Source: Porphyridium purpureum
Lineage: Eukaryota
Length of the DNA: 64,000 bases
Assembly (NCBI GenBank): GCA_008690995.1
Contig: VRMN01000006.1
Location: forward strand, 558,001 to 622,000
Reading direction: 5' to 3'
The notes below the pieces were generated by a model, which did not search any database, had not been told where the DNA came from, and saw nothing but the letters and a program-made list of their open reading frames with translations. Made by a program: the position numbers and the translations under genes. Every line of letters starts with the position of its first letter. Position 1 is the stretch's first letter. Shown here piece by piece: positions 10,984-55,659 of the stretch.

Positions 10984-12213
10984 ATGGCAAAGACGCGCAG
11001 GTTAGAGCTCGTGTTCAACCCGGTGTCCGGCCCAGGAGGGCTCGAGGCCGGGCTTGAAGTGCTGGAGCTGGTCAAGAGGATTCTACGCGAGGAGTTTGAC
11101 GAGTTTGGAGTGTGCGAGACCAAGCCGGATCTTGGATGCTACGACATTGTGACCAAGCTGCTGAGTGATGACCTCGAGCGCGTGAAGGGCGAGGATGCCA
11201 CCAGCCGGAAAAGAGAGCAGTGGACCCTCGTCGTGAGCGGCGGGGATGGGTCGATTCACGAAGCTGTTAGCGCAATGCGCAGATTTGAAAAGAAGCTTAA
11301 CTCGTCCGAACAGGAGCTGTACGTGATGCCGCGACTGGGGGTGATTCCGCGCGGCACGGGAAACGCGGTGGCGCTCGCGTTGGGGATTCCGACCGACCCT
11401 ACGGCGGCATGCGCGCTGATATGCACGAGCCACACGAGGACGTTGGACGTCGCCCACGTTTCGTTCCCCGGGCAATTGGACGACGATAGGAGCGAGAATG
11501 ATCCTTCGCAAGATCGGTACTGCATTCTCCTTGCCGGCGTGGGGCGAGAGGCGATTATGACTCGCGAAGCGACGCGCGAACTAAAGTCCAAGATTGGCGT
11601 GCTCGCATACGGCTGGGGAATCTTCAAAGCGTGCGTCGACGATGCTGAGAAGTTTGAAGTCAAGCTCATTTTGGACAATGTGCACGATGCGATGAAATTT
11701 TCATCCAGACGAAAGGGAACGGTTGTGGACATTGATCGACTGACAGTGACCAACATGAAGGCTATGGGAGTCACCATCTCCAACCTTGCACCCATATCCT
11801 CAGTCATGTCTGCCGGGATTGGCGATATTGTGCCCGACGACGGACTCCTGGAGTGCGTCTGCTTTGCACCCGAAACACGGCTGGACGGCATCCGGGCCAT
11901 GTTTAGCATGATGATGTCTGGCCTGTTCAATGTGCGTCTCCTACGACCCGAGGTGTTTGGACTGCGCGCCAAAAAAGTGGTTCTCAACTGCAACCCGCCC
12001 AAGCAAGTCGTACTGGACGGCGAGCTACTTGGAAAGACCCCCATGCAGCTAGAATGTGAGGCCAAGACTGTGGAGATCATTGCGCCGCCCAAGAAGGAAG
12101 TGAACACGCCCATGCGCAAGTTCCGCAACATGATGCGTAAAATTCAGGGCGCCGTGGCCATATCGGTGGTCATTGCTGCGTCCAGCACCGCCGAGAGCGT
12201 ATGTCGAGTGTAG
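10984..12213 (+). CDS. Diacylglycerol kinase-like lipid kinase (YegS/BmrU/DAGKc family), copy 1
   Basis: VFNPVSG, SGGDGSIHEAV, GVIPRGTGNAVA, LAGVG, DDGLLE, VLDGE; hydrophobic C-terminus. Confidence 0.9.
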   Translation: MAKTRRLELVFNPVSGPGGLEAGLEVLELVKRILREEFDEFGVCETKPDLGCYDIVTKLLSDDLERVKGEDATSRKREQWTLVVSGGDGSIHEAVSAMRRFEKKLNSSEQELYVMPRLGVIPRGTGNAVALALGIPTDPTAACALICTSHTRTLDVAHVSFPGQLDDDRSENDPSQDRYCILLAGVGREAIMTREATRELKSKIGVLAYGWGIFKACVDDAEKFEVKLILDNVHDAMKFSSRRKGTVVDIDRLTVTNMKAMGVTISNLAPISSVMSAGIGDIVPDDGLLECVCFAPETRLDGIRAMFSMMMSGLFNVRLLRPEVFGLRAKKVVLNCNPPKQVVLDGELLGKTPMQLECEAKTVEIIAPPKKEVNTPMRKFRNMMRKIQGAVAISVVIAASSTAESVCRV

Positions 12214-12490: not shown

Positions 12491-13711
12491 ATGGAGAGGA
12501 CTCGCAGGCTGGTGCTGGTGTTCAACCCGATTTCTGGGCCCGGAGGGCTGGAGGCCGGCTGTAGAACGCTCGAGGAGGTGAAGAAGGTGTTCTCCGCCGC
12601 GTTCGACGAGCTGGAGGTGCACGAGACCAAGCCGGATGTGTCGTGTTATGACATTGTCACGGACGTGCTGCATAAAGATGTGAAGACAGCTCTGGAAGCG
12701 GAGGATCAGATGGAGCAGTGGACGTTGGTGGTGAGTGGCGGCGACGGCTCCATCCACGAGGCCGTCAGCGCCATGCGCAGGTTTGAGAAGAAGCTCGACG
12801 ACGCCCAGCGCGAACGGTACGTTATGCCACGTTTGGGCGTCATACCGCGCGGAACAGGCAACGCAGTGGCGCTGGCACTGGGCATTCCGACAGAGCCGAT
12901 GGCCGCATGTAACTTTATTTGCTCTGGTGGAACAAGAAGGTTGGACGTCGCACAAGTGACGTTTCCAGACCAGGAGAACAGTCGAGCCGAAAAGGCACCC
13001 TCTCAAGAGCGGTATTGCATTCTTCTCGCGGGCGTTGGTCGCGAGGCGTCGATGACGCGAAACGCCACCCGCGAGCTAAAGTCTAAGATTGGTATGCTTG
13101 CATATGGTTGGGGCGCCATGAAGGCGTGCTTTGCGGAGTCAGAAAAATTCGAGGTTTCGCTAGTACTGGACGACGCACACGACGTGATGAAGTTCTCTTC
13201 GAAGCAAAGGGGCTCGGGTACCGTTGTCGATATCGATCGGCTCTCAGTAACCAAGCTGCATGCAATGGGCGTCACCGTAGCCAACTTGGCACCGTTCAGC
13301 ACGGTGATGTCGTGTGGTATTGGCGACGTGATTCCAGACGATGGGCTTCTGGAATGTGTTTGCTTTGCGCCGGAAACACGTTTAGATGGATTGAAAGCCA
13401 TGCTGAGCATGCTCATTTCGGGCTTGTTCAACGTACGACTCTTGCGCCCCGAGGTGTTTGGCATGCGCGCGAGAAAAGTGCTGCTCAAGTGCGACCCACC
13501 CAAAGAAATTGTTCTGGACGGAGAATTGCTCGGTCAGACGCCGATGCAGCTTGAATGCGAGGCCAAGACTATTGAGATCATTGCACCTTCGAAAAGAGAA
13601 ATGAATTCGCGCATGCGCCGGCTACGTCACGTGTTGCGAAAAGTCCAGGGCACAGTGGCCATGGTGGTTTTCGCAGGGCTGGCGAACAAGGCTTTGAAGT
13701 CGATGGCATAG
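12491..13711 (+). CDS. Diacylglycerol kinase-like lipid kinase (YegS/BmrU/DAGKc family), copy 2
   Basis: Same motifs as copy 1 and colinear with it; tandem paralogue. Confidence 0.9.
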   Translation: MERTRRLVLVFNPISGPGGLEAGCRTLEEVKKVFSAAFDELEVHETKPDVSCYDIVTDVLHKDVKTALEAEDQMEQWTLVVSGGDGSIHEAVSAMRRFEKKLDDAQRERYVMPRLGVIPRGTGNAVALALGIPTEPMAACNFICSGGTRRLDVAQVTFPDQENSRAEKAPSQERYCILLAGVGREASMTRNATRELKSKIGMLAYGWGAMKACFAESEKFEVSLVLDDAHDVMKFSSKQRGSGTVVDIDRLSVTKLHAMGVTVANLAPFSTVMSCGIGDVIPDDGLLECVCFAPETRLDGLKAMLSMLISGLFNVRLLRPEVFGMRARKVLLKCDPPKEIVLDGELLGQTPMQLECEAKTIEIIAPSKREMNSRMRRLRHVLRKVQGTVAMVVFAGLANKALKSMA

Positions 13712-41594: not shown

Positions 41595-42162
41595 AAATAG
41601 CAGCGCTTGGAATGGTGGGAACGGATGATTCGAACCCCAGAAAGTGCACGACCGGGAGTCAAGGTCCCCCATCTACCTTGCGGTCACCGGGTAGATCCTA
41701 ATGTGCCCGCCGTATGCATGCTTGAAGCGAAAATTTTGACTGCATTCCGAGGCGCCTGAAAGAGGGAGTGGCTCGCCTAGAATGGCAGCGTGCACGCATG
41801 CGTGCGTCAGTATGCCTAGCTTTCCATGTTCTCGGGGGAAATAGAATCGGGAAGTTGCTAAGTTTATGGCTAGAGATGCTTTGTGTGGTGATCGCTGGGA
41901 AACGGCCCTGTGCCTTTCTTCCTGCATAAGTCGCGAAGCGAGCGGATTTACAGACCTGCCGTGCGCTTGAACTGCGTCGCAATTGGAACGGAAGAGCTTT
42001 CTTTCAAACGATTTATCGACTTGGAAGCCGCGAAATGTTTCTAATTTTGCTTACCCGATTAAGCACAAAGTTGGTGCAACGCTGCTTTTAGCGCAAGGCG
42101 CAGCTTTCCACGCGTAGTGCATTATAAAAAAGGTATTATAATATCTTGGTCTATCGTCTTGT

Positions 42163-44580
42163 CTACGATCGCTTGCCAAACTTTTCCTTAAGCTTGGTGA
42201 GCAATCCGCGAGAATGCTTCTCCTCACGCGGCGATGTCCACTTCTCGGGCCCCTTCAAGGACGGGGCACGGCGACTTTTCACCGCCTGCGATAAAGCGGC
42301 GCGACGATCTTCGATGGCTCGCCCAATAGATTGGCGACGGCTTTGTACTGCTTGAGAAAAAGCAGCGCCACGGTCGCTGATAACTTTGCCTCCATCTTTC
42401 AGGGCATGTCCTAAACCGCCTAGCCGATTTTTAAGGTTTCGGCCAAGCTCTTCGCGACGCTCATTCGCCACGTGCTGCATGGTCGTCTTGCGACTCGTCT
42501 CTGTCGCCTCGCGCTTATCCGCCTCCCGAGGTAAAGATCCGCCCTTCTTAACAGCTTGAGTGATGGCGTCGCGGCGATCATTAAATGCCTTGCCGAGATC
42601 ACTGCGACGCTCGTTGAGTGCCTGCGAAAAGGCAGCGCCACGATCTTGCATCGACTGTCCCCTACCATTGAGAGGCTTCGTCGTCGAAGACGGGGAAGGC
42701 CTGCCACGATCTTTCACGGCCTCTCCAAGCGTCCTGCCACGATCCTGGACCGCATGCCAAAGCGACAAGGCCGCATTTCGCGAGGACGATGGCGATCCTG
42801 TCGATTCTGTCGACTCTTTCGCTGGTGGCGATCTCGCTGACGATGAGCTGCCGGCCAGGGAATCGAGATATGAGCCAGAGAAGGCTCCACCATAAGATGA
42901 CCGCGACCCACTCACAACATCCGAGCTTCTGCCGTTTCCGTTACCTATCGCTTTCGTGTCCAGCGTCTTTCGTCGTCCAGCCGCCTCTGGCGCTTTCTGA
43001 ACAGGAATCGGGGCCGTAGCTTTCAACTCATACCGAGGTGACGGGGTGTGGCTTGAAACCGGAGTCATGTCCAATGCCGCGCAGGTCCACAGAAACACAT
43101 CGACAGCGCTTGAACCTCCTTCGTGCATGAAGAAATACTCCTCTGGAGAGCATGCAGGTATCACGGCCGGGGATGACACGAAATCCTCGCGGGGCATGAC
43201 GTCCGCGGCCAGAAGAATCCCGGACGGCAAGGCAGCAGTGATCGGAAGTCCTTCGGCCAACATACTGGATGGAGAATGGCTCGGCTGCAACTCGGTGTAC
43301 AAACTCGAAAGCACAGGGATGGGCAGCAACTCGACTTGTGCGACTGCAGGCAGCTCAGTCTTTGCCTCAGATTTAAAAACCGGCGCGACCACGTCAGTGC
43401 TTGGACTTAGGTTGAAATCCCGCCCGCTGTTTCTGATCTCCTGCAAGTCGGCCGAGATGGTATCCGCAATGGTCTCCAATGGCAACGTGACGCAAGGCAC
43501 CTTTCTGTGCACCCAAAAGGGATCCTCAATCAGGTTTCCAATCTCCTCGATCGAAAATAGCGCGCCGGCCACAAAGGCCATGATGGGTACCACAAGGATA
43601 CCCGTGCTCTTGACGAGAATAACCGGCCACGTGAAACACCACAACGCAATAAAGCGACTGGTATGTTGGGCGTAGACTAACGGCACTGGAGTCTTGACAA
43701 TACGCTCGCACGCGCCCATAGCGTCAATCAAGTCCGCAATGCCGCGCTCCAACGTATCGCGCTCAGCCCATGTGTTGCCGCCGCGAAAGCCTCGCTTTTC
43801 ATACACTTCCGCGGTGTAGCGCGACACCAGCCGCATAATATACAGCGGACGATTACGCGCCTTCACGTAAAGGTCCCAGTCTTCCACAGGAAGTAATTCG
43901 CGAATGTCCGAGCTTGGTTCCTGCTGCCCGCGCAGATGGTTGGCCAGACTCTTTGAGAACGCAGCCAACAATCGAATGAGCTTCTGCGCCATCTTGGGGT
44001 TGGGAGCGTCCGAGTCGGGTCCAATCCAATTCATGATACCGGAGGCCATGCTCCTCGAGCGATTCACAATATAGTTCCACAGCTTGCGGCCCTCCCAAAA
44101 GCGGTCGTACGCCGAATTGGTCCTAAACACAAGCAGCAAGCCCATGACGGTACCCAACATACTGTAGGGAACGGGAGCAATCTGCCAGATATGCCAGTCT
44201 GGGTAGCGCTCGTACAGGTAAAGCACGAGCCCCGATACAGCCGTGTTTGCAACCAGGTGCGATCCGATACGGCCCAGGACGCGGGAGCTGGGCCAGGTCT
44301 GCAGGCTCTTGACCCAATCAGCGGACGTATACCTCTCTGGCCGCACGATGGCCATGTGCAGATGCGACGCTGCGCCGCAGGCTCTTGATCCTGACCTACT
44401 CTTCACCCAGACGCGCCTTGTGCCAAACTGTGCAGCGACCACGCGACCACTTTCAAGAACGCCTCTGCGTTCGTCTCTGCTTCGGCGTCTGCTGCTGCTT
44501 CCGCTCGCGCTTGCGCTCGACACTGCCGCGCAGCGCGGTACAGCGGCATGCACCGCCATAAAGGCCGCGCTAGGCGCCAT
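42163..44580 (-). CDS. Plastid bestrophin-like anion channel (UPF0187/VCCN/BST) with ~420-aa C-terminal extension
   Basis: Transit peptide; LLLVFRTNSAYDRFWEGRK.W, GACERIVKTPVP..Y..HTSRF, IEEIG..IEDPF; the frame continues with an S/P-rich then 11-mer-repeat tail. Confidence 0.92.
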   Translation of the reverse strand: MAPSAAFMAVHAAVPRCAAVSSASASGSSSRRRSRDERRGVLESGRVVAAQFGTRRVWVKSRSGSRACGAASHLHMAIVRPERYTSADWVKSLQTWPSSRVLGRIGSHLVANTAVSGLVLYLYERYPDWHIWQIAPVPYSMLGTVMGLLLVFRTNSAYDRFWEGRKLWNYIVNRSRSMASGIMNWIGPDSDAPNPKMAQKLIRLLAAFSKSLANHLRGQQEPSSDIRELLPVEDWDLYVKARNRPLYIMRLVSRYTAEVYEKRGFRGGNTWAERDTLERGIADLIDAMGACERIVKTPVPLVYAQHTSRFIALWCFTWPVILVKSTGILVVPIMAFVAGALFSIEEIGNLIEDPFWVHRKVPCVTLPLETIADTISADLQEIRNSGRDFNLSPSTDVVAPVFKSEAKTELPAVAQVELLPIPVLSSLYTELQPSHSPSSMLAEGLPITAALPSGILLAADVMPREDFVSSPAVIPACSPEEYFFMHEGGSSAVDVFLWTCAALDMTPVSSHTPSPRYELKATAPIPVQKAPEAAGRRKTLDTKAIGNGNGRSSDVVSGSRSSYGGAFSGSYLDSLAGSSSSARSPPAKESTESTGSPSSSRNAALSLWHAVQDRGRTLGEAVKDRGRPSPSSTTKPLNGRGQSMQDRGAAFSQALNERRSDLGKAFNDRRDAITQAVKKGGSLPREADKREATETSRKTTMQHVANERREELGRNLKNRLGGLGHALKDGGKVISDRGAAFSQAVQSRRQSIGRAIEDRRAALSQAVKSRRAPSLKGPEKWTSPREEKHSRGLLTKLKEKFGKRS

Positions 44581-44989
44581 CTCAACCTCCTCCCGCCTTC
44601 CGACTCAGCCCAGCGCGCCGGATCGTCGACGACTTGGTCTCCGTCTGCTTCTCCCACCTCGCACCAGATCACCGCACTTCTGGTTCAAGCGCGTCGAGAA
44701 AATCTCCATTTCATAGTAAAATGAGTCCGTTTTATGATTTTCTGGGATGCTGCTCGCTGCGTGCGTTCTGCGCACCGGGCAACACGCTCGTGCCGCAGCA
44801 GCTGACTCGCAGGGCTCACGCCTGGAATGTGCGCGACTCGGCTTGAATTGCGTGGAGATATCGGTTCCGCGCCGAGGAGCACGGCGCTCGCCTGATGTGG
44901 TGTGATGGAACACGTGGTGCCGCGCAAGCGCGAACCTTGAGACCCTCGGCTGATCGTGCGTTCCAACGCATGCGGCAGAGCCGTCCACA

Positions 44990-45140
44990 GCGATCGTTCC
45001 AGGTGGATGAGAAGCAGAGACCACTGGGACTCGATTCCGCAATTGATTAGGCTCTTTGCTTGCGCTCGGCCGAGTGTGTGCTTCAGGTGCTTGACCCACG
45101 CAGCGGACGTATGGTACCTGTCCGGCCGCAGAATTTCCAT
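44990..45140 (-). pseudogene. Decayed 5' fragment of a bestrophin-like paralogue
   Basis: 45091-45140 encodes MEILRPDRYHTSAAWVK versus MAIVRPERYTSADWVK in the neighbour, with clear nucleotide similarity to ~44309-44355; the downstream channel motifs are absent. Confidence 0.6.
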
Positions 45141-45456
45141 GCGAAGAGGCGAACCCACGGGCGCGCCCCACCATAGAACACAGCACTGATGCTGCTCACA
45201 CTGTACGTGTGGAGTCCGGCTCCTACGAGCTGCAGCTTTTTGTGAAATTCGGAAAGAATGAGGATTTAGTATCGTTAGCTGGTATTCTTCGAGACGTTCA
45301 TAATCAATAATGGTGTCAACAGTTAAGTGGCATATCTGCGTGCCACGCGAAAGAGGTGCTTGCATCCACCTGCAAGCTTCTATGCAAGCAAAGTGCTCTC
45401 GTTGCTTTTGTGCTCGCATTCGCAGTCACGTTTTCAGTGCAGTAAATGTCGCTCGT

Positions 45457-46755
45457 TCATGCCTGCACCGACCCATTGCTCGTGTCGGTGTCTCCACGTA
45501 TAATCCGAGTGTTGCCCGTCTCCCCAACCTCCACGACTGCTCCTTGCTCCTCGACAACATTCTCTCTGAGTCGAAGCAAGCTCTCTGGTCTCCAAAGCAA
45601 GATATGTTCGACCTCCGTCTGAAGAGCTCCGTCGTCTTTGGCGCCATCCGCGAGGCGCTTGGCGAAAAAGTCCTCACCAATCTGACTCCTGATGTCCTGC
45701 AAGTCGCCAAAGAGTTCGTTTGCAAAGTTTTCCAATTTCAGGGTGACGCAAGGCACGCTTGGATTCACCCAAAAGGGGTCCTCAATCAAGTTGCGAATGA
45801 CCTCGACCGAGAAAAGTCCTCCTGCAACAAACGCAGTGGTAGGCACGACAAAGACGCCCACGTGCCGAACCAGAATGACTGGCCAGATGAGGCACCACAA
45901 CGCAATGATGCGGCTTGTCCACTCACCGTAGACCAGTGGCACGGGCGTCTTGGCAATACGTTCGCACATACCCATGTCGTTCATCAAATCCGTAATGCCA
46001 CGCTCCAAAATCTCGCGCTCCGCGCTGGTATTGCCGGCGCGGACGCCACGATGCTTTGTATATACTTCCGCCACGTACCGTGAAAAGAGCCGCAGAATGA
46101 AGAGCGGGCGGTTGCGTGCTACTACGTATCGCTGCCAGTCCTCGGCAGGCACCAGCTCACAAATGACCGGGCTCGGCTCCTCGATTCCGCGCAAGTGCTT
46201 TGAGAGGCTCATGGGGAACGCAGCTAGCAGCTTAATGAGCTTATGTGCCATCTCTGGCTCAGCTGCGTCAGATTCTGGACCAAGCCAGCTGAAAACACCC
46301 ACCGCCAAGGTGCGCGTGCGATTCATCACCGAGCCCCACACGGTGCATCCTTCCCAAAAGCGCTCGTACGCAGAATTGGTTCTGAAGCCCAAGAGGTTGC
46401 CCATGAAGCCACTCATAATCATGAATGGCACCGGGTCGAGCTGCCAGAGCTCGCAGTCGGGAAAGCCCTCGTACAGGCCGAACACCAGCGCTGCAACGGC
46501 AGTGTTAGCGATCACATGTGAGCTAATGCAGCGCAGAATACGCGACTTGGGCAGCGTCACAAGCGCTTTGACCCAGTAGTTGGGAGAGTACCTTTCCTCG
46601 CGAACGAGGGCCATCCGTACATCGCTTGCCTGGCGCGTGGTCGTTCGCCTCTGCGAACATGCCGCACCAACTGTGCAACGGCTCTCTTTTTCGAGCGCGC
46701 GCACGTGACGGGTTCTGGGATGGACCTGCGTCACGGCACTCACAAAGGCGGTCAT
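45457..46755 (-). CDS. Plastid bestrophin-like protein, divergent paralogue
   Basis: MTAFV transit peptide; FRTNSAYERFWEG, CERIAKTPVP, IEDPF. Confidence 0.9.
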   Translation of the reverse strand: MTAFVSAVTQVHPRTRHVRALEKESRCTVGAACSQRRTTTRQASDVRMALVREERYSPNYWVKALVTLPKSRILRCISSHVIANTAVAALVFGLYEGFPDCELWQLDPVPFMIMSGFMGNLLGFRTNSAYERFWEGCTVWGSVMNRTRTLAVGVFSWLGPESDAAEPEMAHKLIKLLAAFPMSLSKHLRGIEEPSPVICELVPAEDWQRYVVARNRPLFILRLFSRYVAEVYTKHRGVRAGNTSAEREILERGITDLMNDMGMCERIAKTPVPLVYGEWTSRIIALWCLIWPVILVRHVGVFVVPTTAFVAGGLFSVEVIRNLIEDPFWVNPSVPCVTLKLENFANELFGDLQDIRSQIGEDFFAKRLADGAKDDGALQTEVEHILLWRPESLLRLRENVVEEQGAVVEVGETGNTRIIRGDTDTSNGSVQA

Positions 46756-48874
46756 CGTGTCTTTCGCTGCAGCGCGACTGCGCGCGTGAAACAAAGGCGA
46801 CCTTTCTCTTCCAGGCTTCTGCAACCACCTTCTTGAAGCAGAGGATGTCTGTCTGTGCCTGTGTCTGTGTGGCGTGTGCACCGCAGCGTCAACCACTCCG
46901 ACCCATCAGTGCGTGACACACTATACAACGAGAAGCAGAATCCAGCCCAATCCATCTGATCCCCGTGTCTGCACTGTCAACACCTTTGTATTTCTCCAGT
47001 CTGGCCGAGCCGTTCGTCATCAGCGCACGTGTCACACACTGCGTTCGCGTCACTTTTGTAAGGTGCCGCTTTGTCAACCACCCGCCAGCAAGAAAGCAAG
47101 CAAGCAAGCAAGCAAGCGAGCAAGCGGTAGAGTCTGTAAATCGGGACCGACTTTGCTTTGTGCAACGTTGCGCGTGACTACAAGGACGACGTCGTCATCG
47201 GTACAACATGCCAATGCGGCTCTCTTCCAGAACGAGTTTCAGCCAGCTCACACATCCAGCTGACGCAACTTTCCACCTAATCGGTTTCGGTTCAAAATCC
47301 AGACAAACCGGTTTGCAACCGAGCAAACTGTACCATTACAACATAGACCCATTTCATAGTATCATGCGGATTACTATTACAACACGTGTGTTTTAGTACA
47401 GATGGCATGGGTGTACAGTTGTGGGTGGCATGGCTATTCTTATCGGTTCACATGAGGCGCGAGTGAGAAACCGTTTCGCGAGCGTGCTCCGACGCTGTGG
47501 CATGGAAGGGAAAGATCCACGTCGCTTCGTGGTATCATCCGAGTGAAAGAGATGCACTGGTCATCCACATTGCGCCGTAGATAGTGCGCAAGGAAGCACG
47601 GACGACGATTGCTTTTCGCGCTAATTCAATGGCGAGTGCACCAGTGACCGTCGCGCAACATGGCAAAAGGCGAGCAGAGGCATCTTCGATGCACACGCAG
47701 CGCGTGTCGTAATTGTGGTAGACCCGTACCGTACAGATGTAAAGTTGAGAGATATGCGTCAGGCTGGATCACACGCAGAACTGACTCGGGGCGGAACAGG
47801 ACGCCACGATCTCAGGTCAGCCACACAGGCAGTCAGCCAGCCGCTGATTCTGGCACATGAGCGTGTGCTCTGAAGCGACTGGGTGCCAGCGCTCGCGGCG
47901 TGCCATCCTCATTCGATCATTCTCCCTTTGCTGTGTCAAACTCATGGTTGATTCTTAGTGCTGGCTACGCGACCGAGGCCATCAAGTCAATACGCGTCGC
48001 AGAACTTCGATACAGAACCCGGAGCAGTGAAGCACGCCTCGGGCTTTCTCTGTTAGTCATGCCGGCGTGAAGTTCCTCAAGTCAGCCCAAACTAGAACCA
48101 AGCTGTTAAACAGAGGAGATGTTTTCTGCGGGTTTCGGTGCAGGACGTCCGTCACATGGCAAAGATGCGGTCAAAGCTCTTGGCCTGTGGCCGACCACCG
48201 GAATGATGCCTTTTAACTTCCCGCATGGACTCGCATCGGGTGCTTGAAGCAACCTCAAAGCAGCGTAGACCAACACAAAGCTTGTCCTCAAGTTTTGTGA
48301 GTACATCAACAGTGCAGACAGTACGCGGCAGCTTGACAGTTTAAAAAACTTCATTACGCAAGACGTGACGCAATTTGCCACACGCTCTGCAGTTTCATCT
48401 TCCTGACACGGTTCCGATCGACCTCTTGGCTTATAGAACACCGCTTTTTGGTCTTTTGGCCCCGGCTCCACCTTTCGGGGCTCGCCACCGAAATGCAGGG
48501 ACTGACCGACCCGTCGCCACATGGTCCCGATCGAAGAAGTGCCACGGTGAAGGACGACATAGAGTGCAGGGTGACGCTGACCTCACTCTGACGATGGATG
48601 GACCCAGGTCGGCTTACGACCGGTTGTGGATCCAGCCGAGGTTCAGAAACGACGATGAATCCGACTTGCCCACTAGAGACTCACGCACAACGCCAATTCG
48701 ACACGTGGACCATCGCAAATGCCAAGGCGACGGCATGCCGTCACTTGGAGATGAAACACACCCGCCTGTTGAATTCCTCTGTTCACGCTCGCCCCACCTT
48801 CCAACATTCAATGTTCGATGCATGGCACGTTTTACATCAAGTGTCGCTGTTGACGACACAAGGAGAATCCGAGA

Positions 48875-50464
48875 ATGGTTTTCGCGGGCTTTGTGGAGGG
48901 ATTCTCTGATGGTTTGGCACGTTGTTGTCGGCACCAGCAGCAGCTACTCCCCGGGGCAGGACATGGGTGTCAAGATGTAAACACACTGCCACAGTTGTCG
49001 TTGCGGCGTCGGTCACGGTGTCGATCTCAGTCGAGGTTATGGATGGCATCTCCACACTCGGGTCTGAACTTGCCTCCCGGTGACAAGGGTCTTCCGCTGC
49101 TTGGCGATTTTCTGAGCTTTACAAGAGGCGGCGCCGCCGGCTTTGAGGGCAAGTTTGAAAAGTACAAGTCCGACGTAGTGACGTCGCGGATTCTCACCAT
49201 CGACACAGTGCTCGTGAAAGGGTTTGACCAGATTCGTCCGATTCTGGAGAGTCCCATGGAACCGGCATGGCCAGGCACAGTGGATGAACTCCTGAAAGGC
49301 AGCATGCCTACGATCAAGGGCGAGCCGCACAAGGCGCGCAGAGAAATCATTTCGCGCATTGCCTTCAGCCGCGAACGCCTGTTGAGCTATGCGCCATTTT
49401 TACAGGCAAACGTGCAGCAGCTGATTGCCAACATTGAGGCGCGCACGGCGTCCAGCGCTCAGACATATGCTCGTTTCAGGGACGAGATTGAGGTCATGGC
49501 GTTCAACGCGGCTGCAGTGCTGTTTCTGGGCGCGGAAGACGTCTACTGCGGGGCGGGTTCTGGACAAAAGGGGGACGGCTTAGACATCGACGAGCGTCTA
49601 GCACAATTTCAAAGATTCGAAGGCGGTCTGTTTACAATCCCGCTCAAGCTGCCGTTCCTGCAAACCCCATGGTCCGAGGCACTGGATGCCAAAGCAGCGT
49701 TGTTGGCGTTCACGCGCCGTGCGGTGGAGAAGCGTATCGAGGCGAAGCAGCAATCAGGCCCCCTGCCCACGATCACAATCATGGACCACCTGGTCGACAT
49801 GCACCTGGAAGGCGATGGCGTGCTCACCAAAGATATTGTCATATCGGAGCTTTTGACGCTGGTGTGGGCAGGCCATTCAACGATCCTTTCGTTCATGCAG
49901 AGCATGGTGTACGAACTCTTCATGGGCGGCACGCACGACGTTGTGCGCAGGATTCGAGCCTCGGCCGAGTACCGCGCGGCTTTGGAGAGCGATGAGGCAT
50001 GGTCTCACTACCTGAAATTGATCATCAAGCCGGACTTGGTAAATGATACCTTGCTCGAGATCGAGCGTCTGCGCCCTCCCGTCCAGAGCGTGTTTCGTAA
50101 GCCACCGCCGGGTGGGATGCAGGTCGGGGCTTACCACATCCCTGAGGGCTGGACCGTACTGCTTTCCATCTTCTCGACGCATCGCGACCCGGTGTATTTC
50201 CCGGAGCCACTCGCGTTCCGACCGGAGCGATTTGCCGAGTCGCCCGAGCTCCGTAAAATCCTGCTCGGATTTTCAGGCGGGGCCCGAGTGTGCATTGGAA
50301 AGTACTACGCGGAGCTGTTTTGTCGAATCTTTCTGCTCACATTCCTTCGGCATGGTGACGTTGTCATGGACCCGGCACAGTCGCGGGAATTTTCAGTGCT
50401 TCCTGGGTATTCGCCCAAGGATGGCGTTCTCGGCCGATTTCAAAAATTGGCTTTGAGCGAGTAG
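48875..50464 (+). CDS. Cytochrome P450, probably plastid-targeted (CYP120/clan 85-like)
   Basis: Transit-peptide-like N-terminus without a signal anchor; LPPG..GLPLLG, AGHST (I-helix), EIERL.PP (ExxR), FRPERF, FSGGARVCIG (heme Cys). Confidence 0.93.
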   Translation: MVFAGFVEGFSDGLARCCRHQQQLLPGAGHGCQDVNTLPQLSLRRRSRCRSQSRLWMASPHSGLNLPPGDKGLPLLGDFLSFTRGGAAGFEGKFEKYKSDVVTSRILTIDTVLVKGFDQIRPILESPMEPAWPGTVDELLKGSMPTIKGEPHKARREIISRIAFSRERLLSYAPFLQANVQQLIANIEARTASSAQTYARFRDEIEVMAFNAAAVLFLGAEDVYCGAGSGQKGDGLDIDERLAQFQRFEGGLFTIPLKLPFLQTPWSEALDAKAALLAFTRRAVEKRIEAKQQSGPLPTITIMDHLVDMHLEGDGVLTKDIVISELLTLVWAGHSTILSFMQSMVYELFMGGTHDVVRRIRASAEYRAALESDEAWSHYLKLIIKPDLVNDTLLEIERLRPPVQSVFRKPPPGGMQVGAYHIPEGWTVLLSIFSTHRDPVYFPEPLAFRPERFAESPELRKILLGFSGGARVCIGKYYAELFCRIFLLTFLRHGDVVMDPAQSREFSVLPGYSPKDGVLGRFQKLALSE

Positions 50465-50578
50465 CGTCCCACTTTTGTCCGGCGCACGTTGCTTTGTTCC
50501 CACAAGCACCTTAAGGTCGGCCCATGCATGAGCAATCCAGTTTATAAGCCTACATGAAGTCGATATTTGAAGGAAAAA

Positions 50579-51823
50579 TTAAATGTTCCTGTTCCATTCC
50601 CAGCCTGCCTTTTTCACATCGGCCGCCGGTGGCTCGGTCGCACCGTCTGGTGACTTGGCGCCGAACCTCATGGTGGGCACAGAAGGCTCCGCTGGTGCCG
50701 CAGGCGGCGGCAGAGCCGCAAGCGCCTCCAGCTGCTGGTCCACCGTGGTAATCATGTCCTGCAAGTCGCCGTTGATCGTCGTCGCCATCGCCTCCAACGG
50801 AAGGTCGATACCCGGCGCGGACGGGTGCTTGATGAACGGATCCTCGATCAAGTGCCCAATCTCCTCAATCGAAAACAGCGCAAACGAGACAAACGCCATG
50901 ATCGGCATCACCAGCCAGTCGTCCGCCTTGACAAAAATGAACGGCAGCGTCAGGCACCACAGCGACAGGAACCGGCTGGTGTGGCGCGAGTACGCCTCGG
51001 GCACGGGCGTCTTGACGATGCGCTCGCACATGCCCATGTAATCCACCAGGTCGTTGATACCGCGCTCCATGGTCTCGCGCTCGGCGTTGGTGTTTCCGTC
51101 GCGCTCCTCGCGGGCCGCGTACGCCTGCGCAATGTAGCGCGACTGGAGGCGGCACACCAGCAGCGGACGGTTGCGCGCCACAATGTACTCTTGCCAGTTT
51201 TGCTTTGGGATGAGCTTCTCCAGCGCCGCATTGGGCTCGAGCTCGCCACGCAAGTGGTTTGCCAGACTGATGGGGAACGCCTGGTCGAGTTTGATCAAGA
51301 TTTTGGAGACTTCTGGGTTTGGCGAGTCGTTGATGGGGCCGAGATAGTTCATGTAGTTGACGCCAAGCGAGCGCGTGCGGTTGACAATGCCTCCCCAGAT
51401 TTTTCGGCCCTCCCAGAATCGGTCGTACGCCGAGTTTGTCCTGAACACCAGCAGCAAGCCCATGACGGTACCCAGCACCGTGTGCGGGAGCGGGCTGATG
51501 CTCCAGATGTCAACCTTCGGGTACTGCTCATACAGAAAAAACACGAAGCCCGCGAAAATCACATTCGCGACAATGTGCGAGCGGATGCGACGCAGAATCG
51601 AGCTTTTCGGGATTGTTGTCAACGACTTGATCCAGTCCGTGCTCTTGTACCTCTCTGGGCGCGTGATAGCCATACTAAGCGCGCTCGGGCGCCTCACGCG
51701 TCGCGGCACCGCGAGTACCAGGCGGGCGCCATTCTTCAGCAACCCTGAGCTGCTGGACGTGAGATGAGCGCGCGGCCGCGCCGCAGCACCCGCGCTCCCG
51801 ACAAACGCCGCGTATCCCGCCAT
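50579..51823 (-). CDS. Plastid bestrophin-like anion channel, twin A
   Basis: MAGYAAFV transit peptide and all family motifs. Confidence 0.93.
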   Translation of the reverse strand: MAGYAAFVGSAGAAARPRAHLTSSSSGLLKNGARLVLAVPRRVRRPSALSMAITRPERYKSTDWIKSLTTIPKSSILRRIRSHIVANVIFAGFVFFLYEQYPKVDIWSISPLPHTVLGTVMGLLLVFRTNSAYDRFWEGRKIWGGIVNRTRSLGVNYMNYLGPINDSPNPEVSKILIKLDQAFPISLANHLRGELEPNAALEKLIPKQNWQEYIVARNRPLLVCRLQSRYIAQAYAAREERDGNTNAERETMERGINDLVDYMGMCERIVKTPVPEAYSRHTSRFLSLWCLTLPFIFVKADDWLVMPIMAFVSFALFSIEEIGHLIEDPFIKHPSAPGIDLPLEAMATTINGDLQDMITTVDQQLEALAALPPPAAPAEPSVPTMRFGAKSPDGATEPPAADVKKAGWEWNRNI

Positions 51824-52151
51824 CTGCGATGCTTCCTATTTCCGTGCGGCGTTTTCCCCCACCCACCCACACACAGAGAGACACCGTTGTCTCTACCACC
51901 TTTCTCGTTCTCTCTCTTTCTCTTCCTCTTTCTCTCTCTCTCACCAACGTGCTACTCGCGCAATCTCCGCAAAACGCTCGAAGATGTTTATATCAAAACA
52001 AACCCATTCTATTAGTAACTTGTCCGCGCGCGTCAGCAGGTGGTCATGGCATGTGCGGTGGATGGACAAGGTTGGTGTGGATGGGGGAAGGAGGTCTGAG
52101 TGTTTATACAGCAGAGAAGAAGGCATTCGCAGTGTCCACCATGCGCGGCAG

Positions 52152-53393
52152 TTAAATATTTCGGTTCGTGTTCCAGCCGGCCGACTTGACGCTGGCGATT
52201 GGCGGTGGCAGGGTCGCGTCGGCGGGCGACTTGGCGCCGAATTTCATGGTGGGCACAGAAGGCTCCGCCGGTGCCGCAGGCGGCGGCAGAGCCGCAAGCG
52301 CCTCCAGCTGCTGGTCCACCGTGGTAATCATGTCCTGCAAGTCGCCGTTGATCGTCGTCGCCATCGCCTCCAACGGAAGGTCGATGCCCGGCGCGTACGG
52401 GTGCTTGATGAACGGATCCTCAATCAAGTGCCCAATCTCCTCAATCGAAAACAGCGCAAACGAGACAAACGCCATGATCGGCATCACCAGCCAGTCGTCC
52501 GCCTTGACAAAGATGAAGGGCAGCGTCAGGCACCACAGCGACAGGAACCGGCTGGTGTGGCGCGAGTACGCCTCGGGCACGGGCGTCTTGACGATGCGCT
52601 CGCACATGCCCATATAGTCAATCAGGTCGTTGATACCGCGCTCCATAGTCTCGCGCTCGGCGTTGGTGTTTCCGTCGCGCTCCTCGCGGGTCGCGTACGC
52701 CTGCGCAATGTAGCGCGACTGGAGGCGGCACACCAGCAGCGGACGGTTGCGCGCCACAACGTACTCTTGCCAGTTTTGCTTTGGGATGAGCTTCTCCAGC
52801 GCCGCATTGGGCTCGAGCTCGCCACGCAAGTGATTTGCCAGACTGATGGGGAACGCCTGGTCGAGTTTGATCAAGATTTTGGAGACTTCTGGGTTTGGCG
52901 AGTCGTTGATGGGGCCGAGATAGTTCATGTAGTTGACGCCAAGCGAGCGCGTGCGGTTGACAATGCCTCCCCAGATTTTCCGGCCCTCCCAGAATCGGTC
53001 GTACGCCGAGTTTGTCCTGAACACGAGCAGCAAGCCCATGACGGTACCCAGCACCGTGTGCGGGAGCGGGCTGATACTCCAGATGTCAATGTTCGGGTAC
53101 ATCTCGTGCAACGCAAACACGATACCAGCAAACGCCACATTCGCCAGAATGTGTGACTGAATGCGGCGCAGGATCGAGCTCTTCGGGATCGTCGCGAGCG
53201 ACTTGATCCAGTCCGTGCTCTTGTACCTCTCTGGGCGCGTGATAGCCATACTAAGCGCGCTCTGGCGCCTCACGCGTCGCGGCGCCGCGACCACTGCGCC
53301 AGCCCCAATCACCAATGCCGAGCTCGTGGACGCCAGCTGCGCGCGCGCCGTTTGCGCGCGCAAGCCAGCTCCCGCACAACCTACAAAAGCCAT
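52152..53393 (-). CDS. Plastid bestrophin-like anion channel, twin B
   Basis: MAFV transit peptide; near-identical to 50579-51823 over the core. Confidence 0.93.
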   Translation of the reverse strand: MAFVGCAGAGLRAQTARAQLASTSSALVIGAGAVVAAPRRVRRQSALSMAITRPERYKSTDWIKSLATIPKSSILRRIQSHILANVAFAGIVFALHEMYPNIDIWSISPLPHTVLGTVMGLLLVFRTNSAYDRFWEGRKIWGGIVNRTRSLGVNYMNYLGPINDSPNPEVSKILIKLDQAFPISLANHLRGELEPNAALEKLIPKQNWQEYVVARNRPLLVCRLQSRYIAQAYATREERDGNTNAERETMERGINDLIDYMGMCERIVKTPVPEAYSRHTSRFLSLWCLTLPFIFVKADDWLVMPIMAFVSFALFSIEEIGHLIEDPFIKHPYAPGIDLPLEAMATTINGDLQDMITTVDQQLEALAALPPPAAPAEPSVPTMKFGAKSPADATLPPPIASVKSAGWNTNRNI

Positions 53394-53921
53394 TGCGTGC
53401 GTCTCCCGTTAAACAGCCTCTGTGTCCACCTCCGCCTGCTACACCTCTGTCGAGTGCCAGACCTCTACCGCCTGCATTCACTCGTCCTCTCTCTGTGTGT
53501 CTACCCGCTCATAAGTATCACCCCCTTCCCCACATCCGACCCAAGCAGGGTCCAATCCTCCCACACACATTCTACACCGCCAGTCTGTCGCACAAAGCTA
53601 CCCACACAGCGTACCACGCCGCTCCACAGCAGCACAGCGATCGAGATTACTCCATCCACACTCGCGCAGCCACGCAGCCACGCAATCCACGCCGCGCCCG
53701 AAAACGCACGCAGCACTCACTCACCTGCCACACAGCCTCCTCCAAATGCTCGCGCCATTCCATCCACCAGCGCACTAATTCACGCTCCACCAACACCCAC
53801 CCCAATGCAACCACCACCACCACCACCACCACCTCCCCCAATCTCCTCCACTTCCTCCTTCCCCCAATCTATACGCATTCCTTCCTGCATTCCTCTATTA
53901 AACCAGCCCTGTTTTACTATC

Positions 53922-54000
53922 AAAACCGTTTTTCGGCTCGTTCGGTTTTCCGGGTTTTCCGGGTTTTCCGCGTTTCCGGTTTCCGGTTTGTTGGTTGGTT
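53922..54000. repeat. Imperfect tandem (CGGGTTTTC / CGGTTTC) array in a divergent bestrophin promoter
   Basis: ttcggttttc cgggttttcc gggttttccg cgtttccggt ttccggtttg read directly. Confidence 0.75.
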
Positions 54001-54486
54001 TATTATTTTTTGAGGTGGTTTTGATATGAAACCGGTGCTGTAACACGCAGGCGATGATGGTTCGAGGGAGTTTGAGGGGTGAGAGAGCTTGCGACAAAGG
54101 CCTTTTGGGTTGTGGGTTGTGTGGATGGTTTGACTGTGGGGTGACGGGCAGTGTCTGGAAAGGGCGCTTGTTTCAGGCCACAAAAACCGCGCGGCTGTGC
54201 TTCTGCGTCGCTCGGCATTGGTCTGCTTGCCGCGCTCTGTCGCTCGGTCTGTGTCTTTGCGTCTCATGTGCACGGACGCACATCCACGCAGCGCGCGACA
54301 GTTTGAAGCGTCCGATTGGACCAACTTGCATTTGGTTATTTAAAGGTCGGGAGATTGAGTCATTTGAGAGAAAGCAGTGAGGTGGGTGGGGAGAGAGGGA
54401 GAGGGAGAGAGGAAGAGAGAGAGAAAGAGAGAGAGGTGAGTGAGTGGTTGGGAGGTGGAGAGGAGGGCTGCTTGGTGTGTGGAATC

Positions 54487-55659
54487 ATGTCGTGCGCAGC
54501 GTTTGTGGGAGCCGCGCTGCCTGTCAAGGGCAGCCACGGGTTTGCGGCGCAAGCCGGCACGCGAACGGACGCGCACAAGGTCGCCGTGGCCGCGCCGTTG
54601 GCGAGGCGCGTCCAGCGCGCGGCGGGCGCCGCGCACGCGCCGCTGCAGATGGCCATCACGCGGCCGGAGCGGTACTCGACCACAGACTGGATCAACTCGC
54701 TCGTCACCCTGCCAAAGTCGAGGATTCTCAGGCGCATCAGCTCGCACATCGTCGCCAACGTGGCCGTGTCCGGCCTCATTGTGGCGCTCTTCCAGCAGTA
54801 TCCAGACGCGCTGCTGTGGCGCGTCACGCCGCTGCCGCACACCGTGCTCGGTACCGTGATGGGTCTCATGCTCGTCTTCAGGACCAACTCGGCGTACGAC
54901 AGATTCTGGGAAGGCCGCAAGATCTGGGGTGGCATTGTCAACCGCACGCGCTCGCTCGCCGTCAACTTCCTCAACTTTGTGGGCCCCACCTCGGACGCCG
55001 CCGTCCCGGCCCTCTCGGCCAGGCTGATCAAGCTGGATCAGGCGTTCCCGCTGAGTCTCGCCGATCACCTGCGCGGCGAGCCGACACCGGCTGCGTCCAT
55101 CAAGGCGCTCATCCCTGAAGAGCACTGGGAGGAGTACCTGACTGCTCGAAACAGGCCTCTGCTGACGTGCAAGCTCATGTCGCGATATGTGGCGCAGGCC
55201 TACAGCATGCGCGACCTGCGCGACGGAAACACCAACGCCGAGCGTGAGACTATTGAGCGCGGTATCAACGACCTGATTGACTACATGGGCATGTGCGAGC
55301 GCATCGTCAAGACGCCCGTGCCGCTCAGCTACTCGCGCCACACCAGCCGATTCCTCTCGCTCTGGTGCCTGACCCTGCCGGTCATTTTCGTCAAGGCCGA
55401 CGACTGGCTGGTTCTGCCCATCATGTTCTTCGTGTCGTTCTCCCTGTTCTCGATCGAGGAAATCGGGCACCTGATTGAGGATCCGTTCATTAAGCACCCT
55501 GACGCGCCTGGCATTGACCTTCCGCTGGAGGCCATGGCCTCCACGATCAACGGTGACCTGCAAGATATGCTCGACAGCTTCCCGTCGTGGGCGAATGACC
55601 TGAAGCCCGAGGTCAGAGGCGCCATGGGTCGCCAGCTTGAGGCTGCGGGCAAGCAGTAA
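54487..55659 (+). CDS. Plastid bestrophin-like anion channel, inverted paralogue
   Basis: MSCAAFV transit peptide; FRTNSAYDRFWEGRK, CERIVKTPVP, IEEIGHLIEDPF. Confidence 0.93.
   Translation: MSCAAFVGAALPVKGSHGFAAQAGTRTDAHKVAVAAPLARRVQRAAGAAHAPLQMAITRPERYSTTDWINSLVTLPKSRILRRISSHIVANVAVSGLIVALFQQYPDALLWRVTPLPHTVLGTVMGLMLVFRTNSAYDRFWEGRKIWGGIVNRTRSLAVNFLNFVGPTSDAAVPALSARLIKLDQAFPLSLADHLRGEPTPAASIKALIPEEHWEEYLTARNRPLLTCKLMSRYVAQAYSMRDLRDGNTNAERETIERGINDLIDYMGMCERIVKTPVPLSYSRHTSRFLSLWCLTLPVIFVKADDWLVLPIMFFVSFSLFSIEEIGHLIEDPFIKHPDAPGIDLPLEAMASTINGDLQDMLDSFPSWANDLKPEVRGAMGRQLEAAGKQ

Follow-up and report, generated by a model that had tools for sequence, protein, structure and literature searches.

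Bestrophin channels with long C-terminal tails are known from algal pyrenoids. BST4/RBMP1 of Chlamydomonas has a stromal tail that is needed for localisation to the pyrenoid tubules, can carry truncated subunits along, and contains two short Rubisco-binding motifs, and BST4 is described as not crucial as a tether (PMC11638005); a pyrenoid BST of Ulva has partial motifs in a disordered extension (10.64898/2026.07.16.738900). Two other proteins serve as points of reference: MITH1 of Chlamydomonas, in which a membrane-binding amphipathic helix and an extended helix bring the thylakoid into the pyrenoid (10.64898/2026.06.09.731149), and PYCO1 of diatoms, with repeated KWSPR stickers and oligomerising on RbcS (PMC10288592). 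We analyzed a 64,000-nt window of the Porphyridium purpureum genome (contig VRMN01000006.1, positions 558,001 to 622,000), to which all coordinates below refer, and describe in it a bestrophin-family gene whose 805-residue product, labelled P0001, carries a C-terminal tail of tandem 11-residue repeats. The repeat tail is a real feature, expressed as RNA and under selection.

P0001 resembles BST4, as that protein is described, in being a bestrophin paralog whose C-terminal tail is long and, in P0001 by prediction, disordered, with short-tailed paralogs beside it, but differs in its 13 tandem amphipathic 11-mers, in its lineage, and in that no shared motif was found (PMC11638005). The original prediction, made from the DNA sequence, had called the architecture unrecognised, and our searches of the openly available literature on Porphyridium and red algae, bestrophins, pyrenoids, linkers and 11-mer amphipathic helices likewise brought up no paper that describes it. 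Its novelty is nevertheless narrower than first supposed: in BST4 a bestrophin is already known whose long, disordered tail targets it to the pyrenoid, so that what is new is the type of repeat and the lineage in which it occurs.

Channel and tail in a single open frame

The gene lies on the minus strand at 42163..44580 as a single exon, one open reading frame (ORF) whose RNA shows no splice joints, and a protein collection contains a letter-for-letter copy of the 805 residues. By sequence, P0001 belongs to the Bestrophin_2 family: residues 86–381 (43438..44325, minus strand) match Pfam PF25539 with an E-value of 8.5e-71 and 239 bits, against a curated cut-off of 27. Among proteins of solved structure, the closest in sequence is the plant thylakoid channel VCCN1 (PDB 7ek1, E-value 4e-31), and a Foldseek comparison of the predicted P0001 model with Klebsiella KpBest (PDB 4wd7) gives a TM score of 0.90 by target. 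Although P0001 is like both in domain sequence and predicted fold, neither has a long tail; the three-residue P0001 neck on TM2, T144/L148/F152, aligns to P184/L188/F192 of VCCN1 and recurs unchanged in three of the short-tailed paralogs, and Asn155 stands at the position of VCCN1 Glu195. Residues 1–75 (44356..44580, minus strand) resemble a plastid transit peptide in composition (S+T+A 0.40, 13 K/R, 3 D/E) and have a predicted local distance difference test score (pLDDT) below 50 over residues 1–70. Phe at position 7 belongs to an early N-terminal Phe common to P0001 and all four paralogs in the window, which we take to be the red-lineage mark of a transit peptide. From what is known of the family, P0001 would be imported into the plastid, assemble as a pentamer and conduct chloride or bicarbonate, with its C-terminus in the stroma as in VCCN1 (PMC9076864) and BST4 (PMC11638005).

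The C-terminal extension past the Bestrophin_2 domain comprises 423 residues. It begins with a spacer (residues 402–604; 42769..43377, minus strand) that is acidic and Pro-rich, then Ser/Gly-rich, is predicted to be disordered, and has no Pfam match at an E-value of 10. Thirteen 11-residue units follow over residues 610–776 (window positions 42753 down to 42253), nine complete and four broken off at block ends. Over all 13, Ala stands at position 1 in nine, a bulky hydrophobic residue at position 2 in 12, Asp or Glu at position 4 in nine, Arg at position 5 in 11, Arg or Gly at position 6 in 12, Leu, Phe or Ile at position 9 in 10, and Gly or Ser at position 10 in nine. In the complete units position 5 is Arg in nine of nine and never Lys. 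BLOSUM autocorrelation over residues 606–778 peaks at lags 11 (z 7.3) and 22 (z 5.4), and the lag-11 value was matched at any lag in 0 of 2000 shuffles. At the DNA level, repeats of the tail are spaced 33, 66, 270 and 315 nt, and Tandem Repeats Finder did not detect the 11-mer array.

The units fall into four blocks, as originally described, and the earlier count of about 12 repeats is now 13 units. All four lie on the minus strand: block 1 (residues 604–627; 42700..42771), block 2 (643–680; 42541..42654), block 3 (700–730; 42391..42483) and block 4 (733–771; 42268..42384), the last a duplicate of block 2. Blocks 1 and 2 align to blocks 3 and 4 as two halves with 40% identity, corresponding to the DNA repeats 270 and 315 nt apart. 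The Ser/Pro/Thr linkers said to separate the blocks exist only between blocks 1 and 2; the linker between blocks 2 and 3 is charged, and block 4 follows block 3 with hardly a gap but out of phase with it (units start at 726 and 733). Beyond the array lie a single KWTSPR motif (42226..42243, minus strand), resembling the diatom KWSPR sticker and taken as a lead only, and a Lys-rich predicted amphipathic helix outside the 11-mer units (residues 787–802; 42175..42222, minus strand; moment 0.46–0.49, p 0.04).

RNA covers channel and tail alike. The transcribed span, 41982..44631 on the minus strand, is defined by a 2650-nt contig with 0 gaps in run X5 of a second study and by stranded raw reads of three runs from one study (X21–X23, 20–25% of each sampled). 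The stranded reads cover 30 of 30 bins of the gene in the orientation of minus-strand RNA, with a depth over the repeats of 24–125, 0 joints and 0 indels; in X22, three reads with T-runs mark 41998 as a poly(A)-like loose end. Marine RNA runs also contain the sequence. The refutation that the original prediction had named for itself, a transcript that ends or is spliced before the tail, is thereby removed: the stranded reads and the gapless contig span the repeats, and the RNA runs unspliced through the tail to its poly(A)-like end. The channel-plus-tail architecture is likewise supported: domain and repeat tail are encoded in one ORF, and the peptides first quoted all lie within one minus-strand open frame. 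Depth climbs toward the 3' end, which suggested a separate tail-only transcript; we rejected this and read the climb as library bias, because the paralog at 54487-55659 rises likewise. A plus-strand transcript at 41700-42110, probably the SMC5 3' untranslated region (UTR), and the bestrophin RNA overlap at the 3' end of the latter.

Blocks 2 and 4, a pair chosen for protein similarity, which favours a result of selection somewhat, are identical at 63, 79 and 32% of first, second and third codon positions, with pS 0.75 against pN 0.31 (Fisher p 1e-4). Because silent sites are saturated between them, the duplication is old, and the protein has been kept. Fifteen variant rows were found, of which the 10 near-fixed were classed and five of low frequency left out; six of the 10 in the gene are silent and four are replacements, and those inside the repeats are one silent change and one Leu to Val. 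We judge it highly improbable that the tail reflects a neutral expansion of repeats or an artefact of the gene model. Blocks 1 and 3 would suit such an origin, with pS 0.45, pN 0.47 and no signal of selection over 15 codons, as would the lack of a tail homolog in any collection searched and the fact that the evidence for the tail is at the RNA rather than the peptide level. Yet these set aside neither the silent-site saturation and strain differences just described nor the unspliced RNA, and a stop-free run of 420 codons was reproduced in 0 of 2000 shuffles.

Predicted amphipathic helices and their possible partners

A disorder prediction, proposed as a check when the tail was first noticed, yields a disordered spacer and then helices: AlphaFold2 with a 77-sequence alignment gives pLDDT below 50 over residues 402–604 and helices at 603–614, 644–678, 690–722, 732–769 and 787–802. 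Because that alignment holds no tail homologs, the tail model is effectively a single-sequence one. When the repeat is drawn on an 11/3 wheel, the bulky residues of positions 2 and 9 line up as a narrow stripe, flanked by Arg 5 and Arg/Gly 6, with the acids opposite. Median angles from the hydrophobic axis, which was itself defined from the bulky residues, are 19 degrees for bulky residues, 55 for Lys/Arg and 145 for Asp/Glu; 15 of 15 acids lie more than 100 degrees from the axis, and 16 of 24 basic residues lie at 30–100 degrees (p 1.4e-4). Per-block hydrophobic moments are 0.25–0.37, with a hydrophobic fraction of 0.35, a charged fraction of 0.33 and a net charge of +13 (+17 over residues 604–771). 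Compared with shuffles, amphipathicity is clear in blocks 2 and 3 (p 0.002 and 0.005) and marginal in blocks 4 and 1 (p 0.049 and 0.074).

These moments fall within about the published range of 11/3 lipid-binding helices, 0.257–0.39 (apoA-I 0.39, alpha-synuclein 0.30, Plin3 0.35, Plin4 0.257), among which length of helix is reported to compensate for weak hydrophobicity (PMC5889406, Table 1). With alpha-synuclein, perilipins, apoA-I and Hsp12 the tail shares its 11-residue period, its composition and a layout of basic wings and acidic back (PMC5889406, PMC6164224); for Hsp12, such analysis of a two-wing charge layout is stated to be no proof of helix formation (PMC6164224). It differs from them in using Arg instead of Lys, in a narrower bulky face, and in being fused behind an ion channel where the others are soluble. 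The likeness to lipid-binding 11-mer helices first proposed therefore survives in charge layout and moment range, but not as membership of a sequence family, and the hydrophobic face is narrow; by inference, the tail would work like an 11/3 amphipathic helix protein without belonging to those families. Our preferred reading, held tentatively and with rather less than even confidence, is that P0001 may be a thylakoid anion channel with a flexible, multivalent stromal tether or address that binds membrane. Besides the 11-residue period, the charge layout, the moments and the kept duplicate of blocks 2 and 4, it draws on a Pfam Apolipoprotein match that is weak (E 0.06) but extends across most of the repeats, on the look-alike 11-mer array behind the DUF1385 domain of another protein, P0125, and on the stromal C-terminus of VCCN1 and BST4.

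Several observations weigh against this reading. By a discriminant of the HeliQuest type, only 8 of 64 eighteen-residue windows of the four blocks are lipid-binding, 37 possible and 19 not, and the face has two bulky positions per 11. Some 90% of the head groups in thylakoids carry no charge, and the proven thylakoid-binding helix of MITH1 has few charges, unlike the P0001 repeats (10.64898/2026.06.09.731149). The Pfam Apolipoprotein match reaches 13.5 bits against a cut-off of 90, and the perilipin, synuclein and LEA families give no match to the tail at an E-value of 10. Across the collections searched the repeat tail occurs in one species only, and the comparison of blocks 1 and 3 points the same way. 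The invariant Arg at position 5 may suit a specific protein site equally well, and in the long-tailed algal bestrophins described so far the extensions serve Rubisco motifs (PMC11638005, 10.64898/2026.07.16.738900).

The last two points lead to an alternative that we consider possible but doubtful, in which the repeats would be helices binding Rubisco or the pyrenoid matrix and addressing the channel to pyrenoid-traversing thylakoids, as a convergent analogue of BST4 or of the Rubisco-binding coiled coil of MITH1. The layout of one long-tailed paralog among short ones matches BST4 (PMC11638005), and the Ulva protein with partial motifs in its extension offers a second parallel (10.64898/2026.07.16.738900). 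The blocks are basic and predicted helical, their starts 33–57 residues apart are inside the FLIPPer range of 20–120, and Arg 5 is constant in every complete unit. There is also the one KWTSPR; it is imperfect and unrepeated, so that nothing in P0001 corresponds to a PYCO1-type repeated sticker, and a pattern of this type, picked after being seen, arose in 7 of 20000 shuffles. On the other hand, the known stickers, as described, occur as short single motifs set far apart by spacers and are common to an abundant linker, and a strict head-to-tail 11-residue period is no feature of the stickers in those descriptions. Neither phmmer against 1.84 billion representatives nor a two-half repeat profile found a second repeat-bearing protein of the kind, a check that one or two short copies elsewhere would escape.

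The same helices could instead pair with one another. In a hendecad coiled coil the core positions a, d, e and h are apolar, and in the best register over nine units position a is Leu, Phe or Ile in 9/9, d is mostly Ala and apolar in 7/9, and e is apolar in 9/9. From the single sequence, AlphaFold2 gives long tail helices with pLDDT 80–95, and structure neighbours in the ESM Atlas are generic long helices. Blocks might pair tails inside one pentamer or across several, and protein-protein contact of this sort would cluster channels or bridge thylakoids that face each other. We place this on the unlikely side: Arg occupies the fourth core position, h, in 9/9 units, leaving three of four apolar, the net charge of +17 would repel, Gly is frequent, and Foldseek of the tail model found no fold match at an E-value of 0.001.

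A role with no bearing on membrane geometry, as an LEA- or Hsp12-like stress shield or as a gating element that would fold back on the channel or bind a stromal complex such as the phycobilisome, appears quite improbable. It would draw on the Hsp12-like charge layout (PMC6164224), on the regulation of animal bestrophins via the C-terminus (PMC9076864), and on expression, the gene being covered less than the short-tailed paralogs at 50579-51823 and 54487-55659 in the three stranded runs. Against it stand the missing LEA match and a 200-residue spacer with 13 repeats, which exceed the needs of a gate.

Relatives of the tail and the bestrophin cluster

Among 2726 candidates of 442–1409 residues only P0001 had the tail, and the two-half profile likewise found P0001 alone among 3691 candidates of 134–2000 residues. 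At an E-value of 0.001, phmmer gave three matches: P0001 itself and, weakly, P0125, a DUF1385 protein (E 5.8e-5), and P0126, a mussel protein that is EbhA-like by its source name (E 1.1e-4). Both carry look-alike 11-mer arrays, but at 25–26% identity, with near-perfect low-complexity repeats, and are otherwise unrelated to P0001. In P0125 some 16 near-perfect 11-mers that mimic the P0001 pattern occupy residues ~375–555, after the DUF1385 domain; among predicted membrane proteins it is a second case of an 11/3 amphipathic tail. We read both arrays as convergence; on that reading the 11-mer pattern has come about more than once and does not on its own amount to a Rubisco code.

Metagenome contigs gave the same picture. 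The tail was absent from 319 pattern matches, and a domain scan retained 80 relatives out of 502, with identities of 40% at most; of 81 domain-bearing frames, one had a tail of at least 100 residues and none the repeat. Among 121 proteins, 63 have tails of at least 60 residues, and only P0001 matches the repeat profile (next best E 0.92); the tail of P0050 shows lag-11 periodicity (z 5.5), but is low complexity rich in Ala, Glu, Gln and Lys and was rejected as unrelated. The best other match of the repeat profile within the 64-kb window has an E-value of 0.026, below inclusion. An NCBIfam scan returned nothing meaningful, and an ESM Atlas feature search no usable match. A Pfam Phe_tRNA-synt_N match of 25 residues (22.3–22.8 bits, at the cut-off) was rejected as a generic helix match. 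An analogy with the Agrobacterium growth-pole ring was dropped because no paper on it was found.

The tail is also absent from the four other bestrophins of the window. Five bestrophin genes lie within 13.5 kb (42163-55659), clustered around a cytochrome P450 gene (48875-50464, plus strand). The four paralogs, assigned by their domain, are short-tailed, with 432 residues (45457..46755, minus strand; neck altered to G/N/F), 414 residues (50579..51823, minus strand), 413 residues (52152..53393, minus strand) and 390 residues (54487..55659, plus strand). In a FastTree phylogeny of the top 45 of 112 bestrophin domains, a set without BST4, all five form one clade (support 0.935), with P0001 sister to the 432-residue protein (0.992). 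On this tree the cluster is a local family expansion. Because the tailed protein nests in a clade of local paralogs, sister to the adjacent one, the tail looks like a gain after local duplication, with loss in the other paralogs as the alternative. Part of the spacer may be older: a faint mid-tail pattern, an acidic-aromatic pair followed by V-x-x-x-L-W and judged by eye, is common to the P0001 spacer (43060-43150, minus strand) and the sister paralog (~45550-45680, minus strand), which suggests that this part predates the repeats.

The sister paralog has also lost a conserved EEIG stretch in addition to its change of neck from T/L/F, and may differ in gating or selectivity; in X15, a run of unspecified kind, its contig has about nine times the depth of the contig for the tailed gene. 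Two near-identical paralogs, at 50579-51823 and 52152-53393, end in a Pro/Ala-rich linker with AGWxxNRNI, a candidate short terminal sticker, and in the RNA runs the former ranks with the best-covered bestrophins. Between the two sister genes, at 44800-45400, lies a plus-strand transcript with no Pfam-matched ORF among those scanned. Elsewhere the window, part of a 975-kb contig and with a GC content of 52–63%, contains long single-frame genes such as those for SMC5, eIF3e and HMG-CoA synthase, and a tandem pair of diacylglycerol-kinase-like (YegS-type) genes on the plus strand (10984-12213 and 12491-13711), the first of which was scanned.

Possible roles at the thylakoid membrane

If P0001 is a thylakoid anion channel with a membrane-binding stromal tether, the position of the tail would follow from VCCN1 and BST4, and the four blocks would fold as amphipathic helices on the membrane surface, two bulky residues per repeat inserting into thylakoid lipid and the flanking Arg gripping anionic sulfoquinovosyl diacylglycerol (SQDG) and phosphatidylglycerol (PG). 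A pentamer would carry ~65 repeats on spacers of ~210 residues, whose radius of ~4 nm, estimated with a scaling law, and contour of 80 nm would allow reach to its own or a facing membrane. P0001 could draw short-tailed paralogs along in mixed pentamers, and the curved thylakoids that traverse the pyrenoid, possibly supplying Rubisco with CO2, would be a plausible site for it.

A bolder version, which we regard as unlikely, makes P0001 a bicarbonate channel with a built-in synuclein-like shaper: the ~65 repeats of each pentamer would sense the highly curved thylakoids that cross the Rubisco matrix, or bend them, joining the jobs of BST4 and MITH1, and the protein would be the first molecular component of red-algal pyrenoid membranes. 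MITH1 is the functional model for such a channel-plus-shaper, but is unlike P0001 in being a soluble dimeric coiled coil of ~100 nm with one weakly charged helix, no channel and no 11-mer array noted in its description (10.64898/2026.06.09.731149). Because MITH1 binds both membrane and Rubisco, the membrane and Rubisco readings of the repeats are not mutually exclusive (10.64898/2026.06.09.731149).

According to a 2026 review, a dense thylakoid network of high curvature runs through the Porphyridium pyrenoid, molecular details of rhodophyte pyrenoids are sparse, and the shaping of traversing membranes is an open question (PMC13655443). The P0001 gene provides a specific candidate for these poorly known red-algal membranes, with a soluble tail of ~200 residues that is cheaply testable. 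Even without a role in the pyrenoid, a channel with a tandem 11/3 amphipathic array would represent an unusual means of positioning by membrane geometry.

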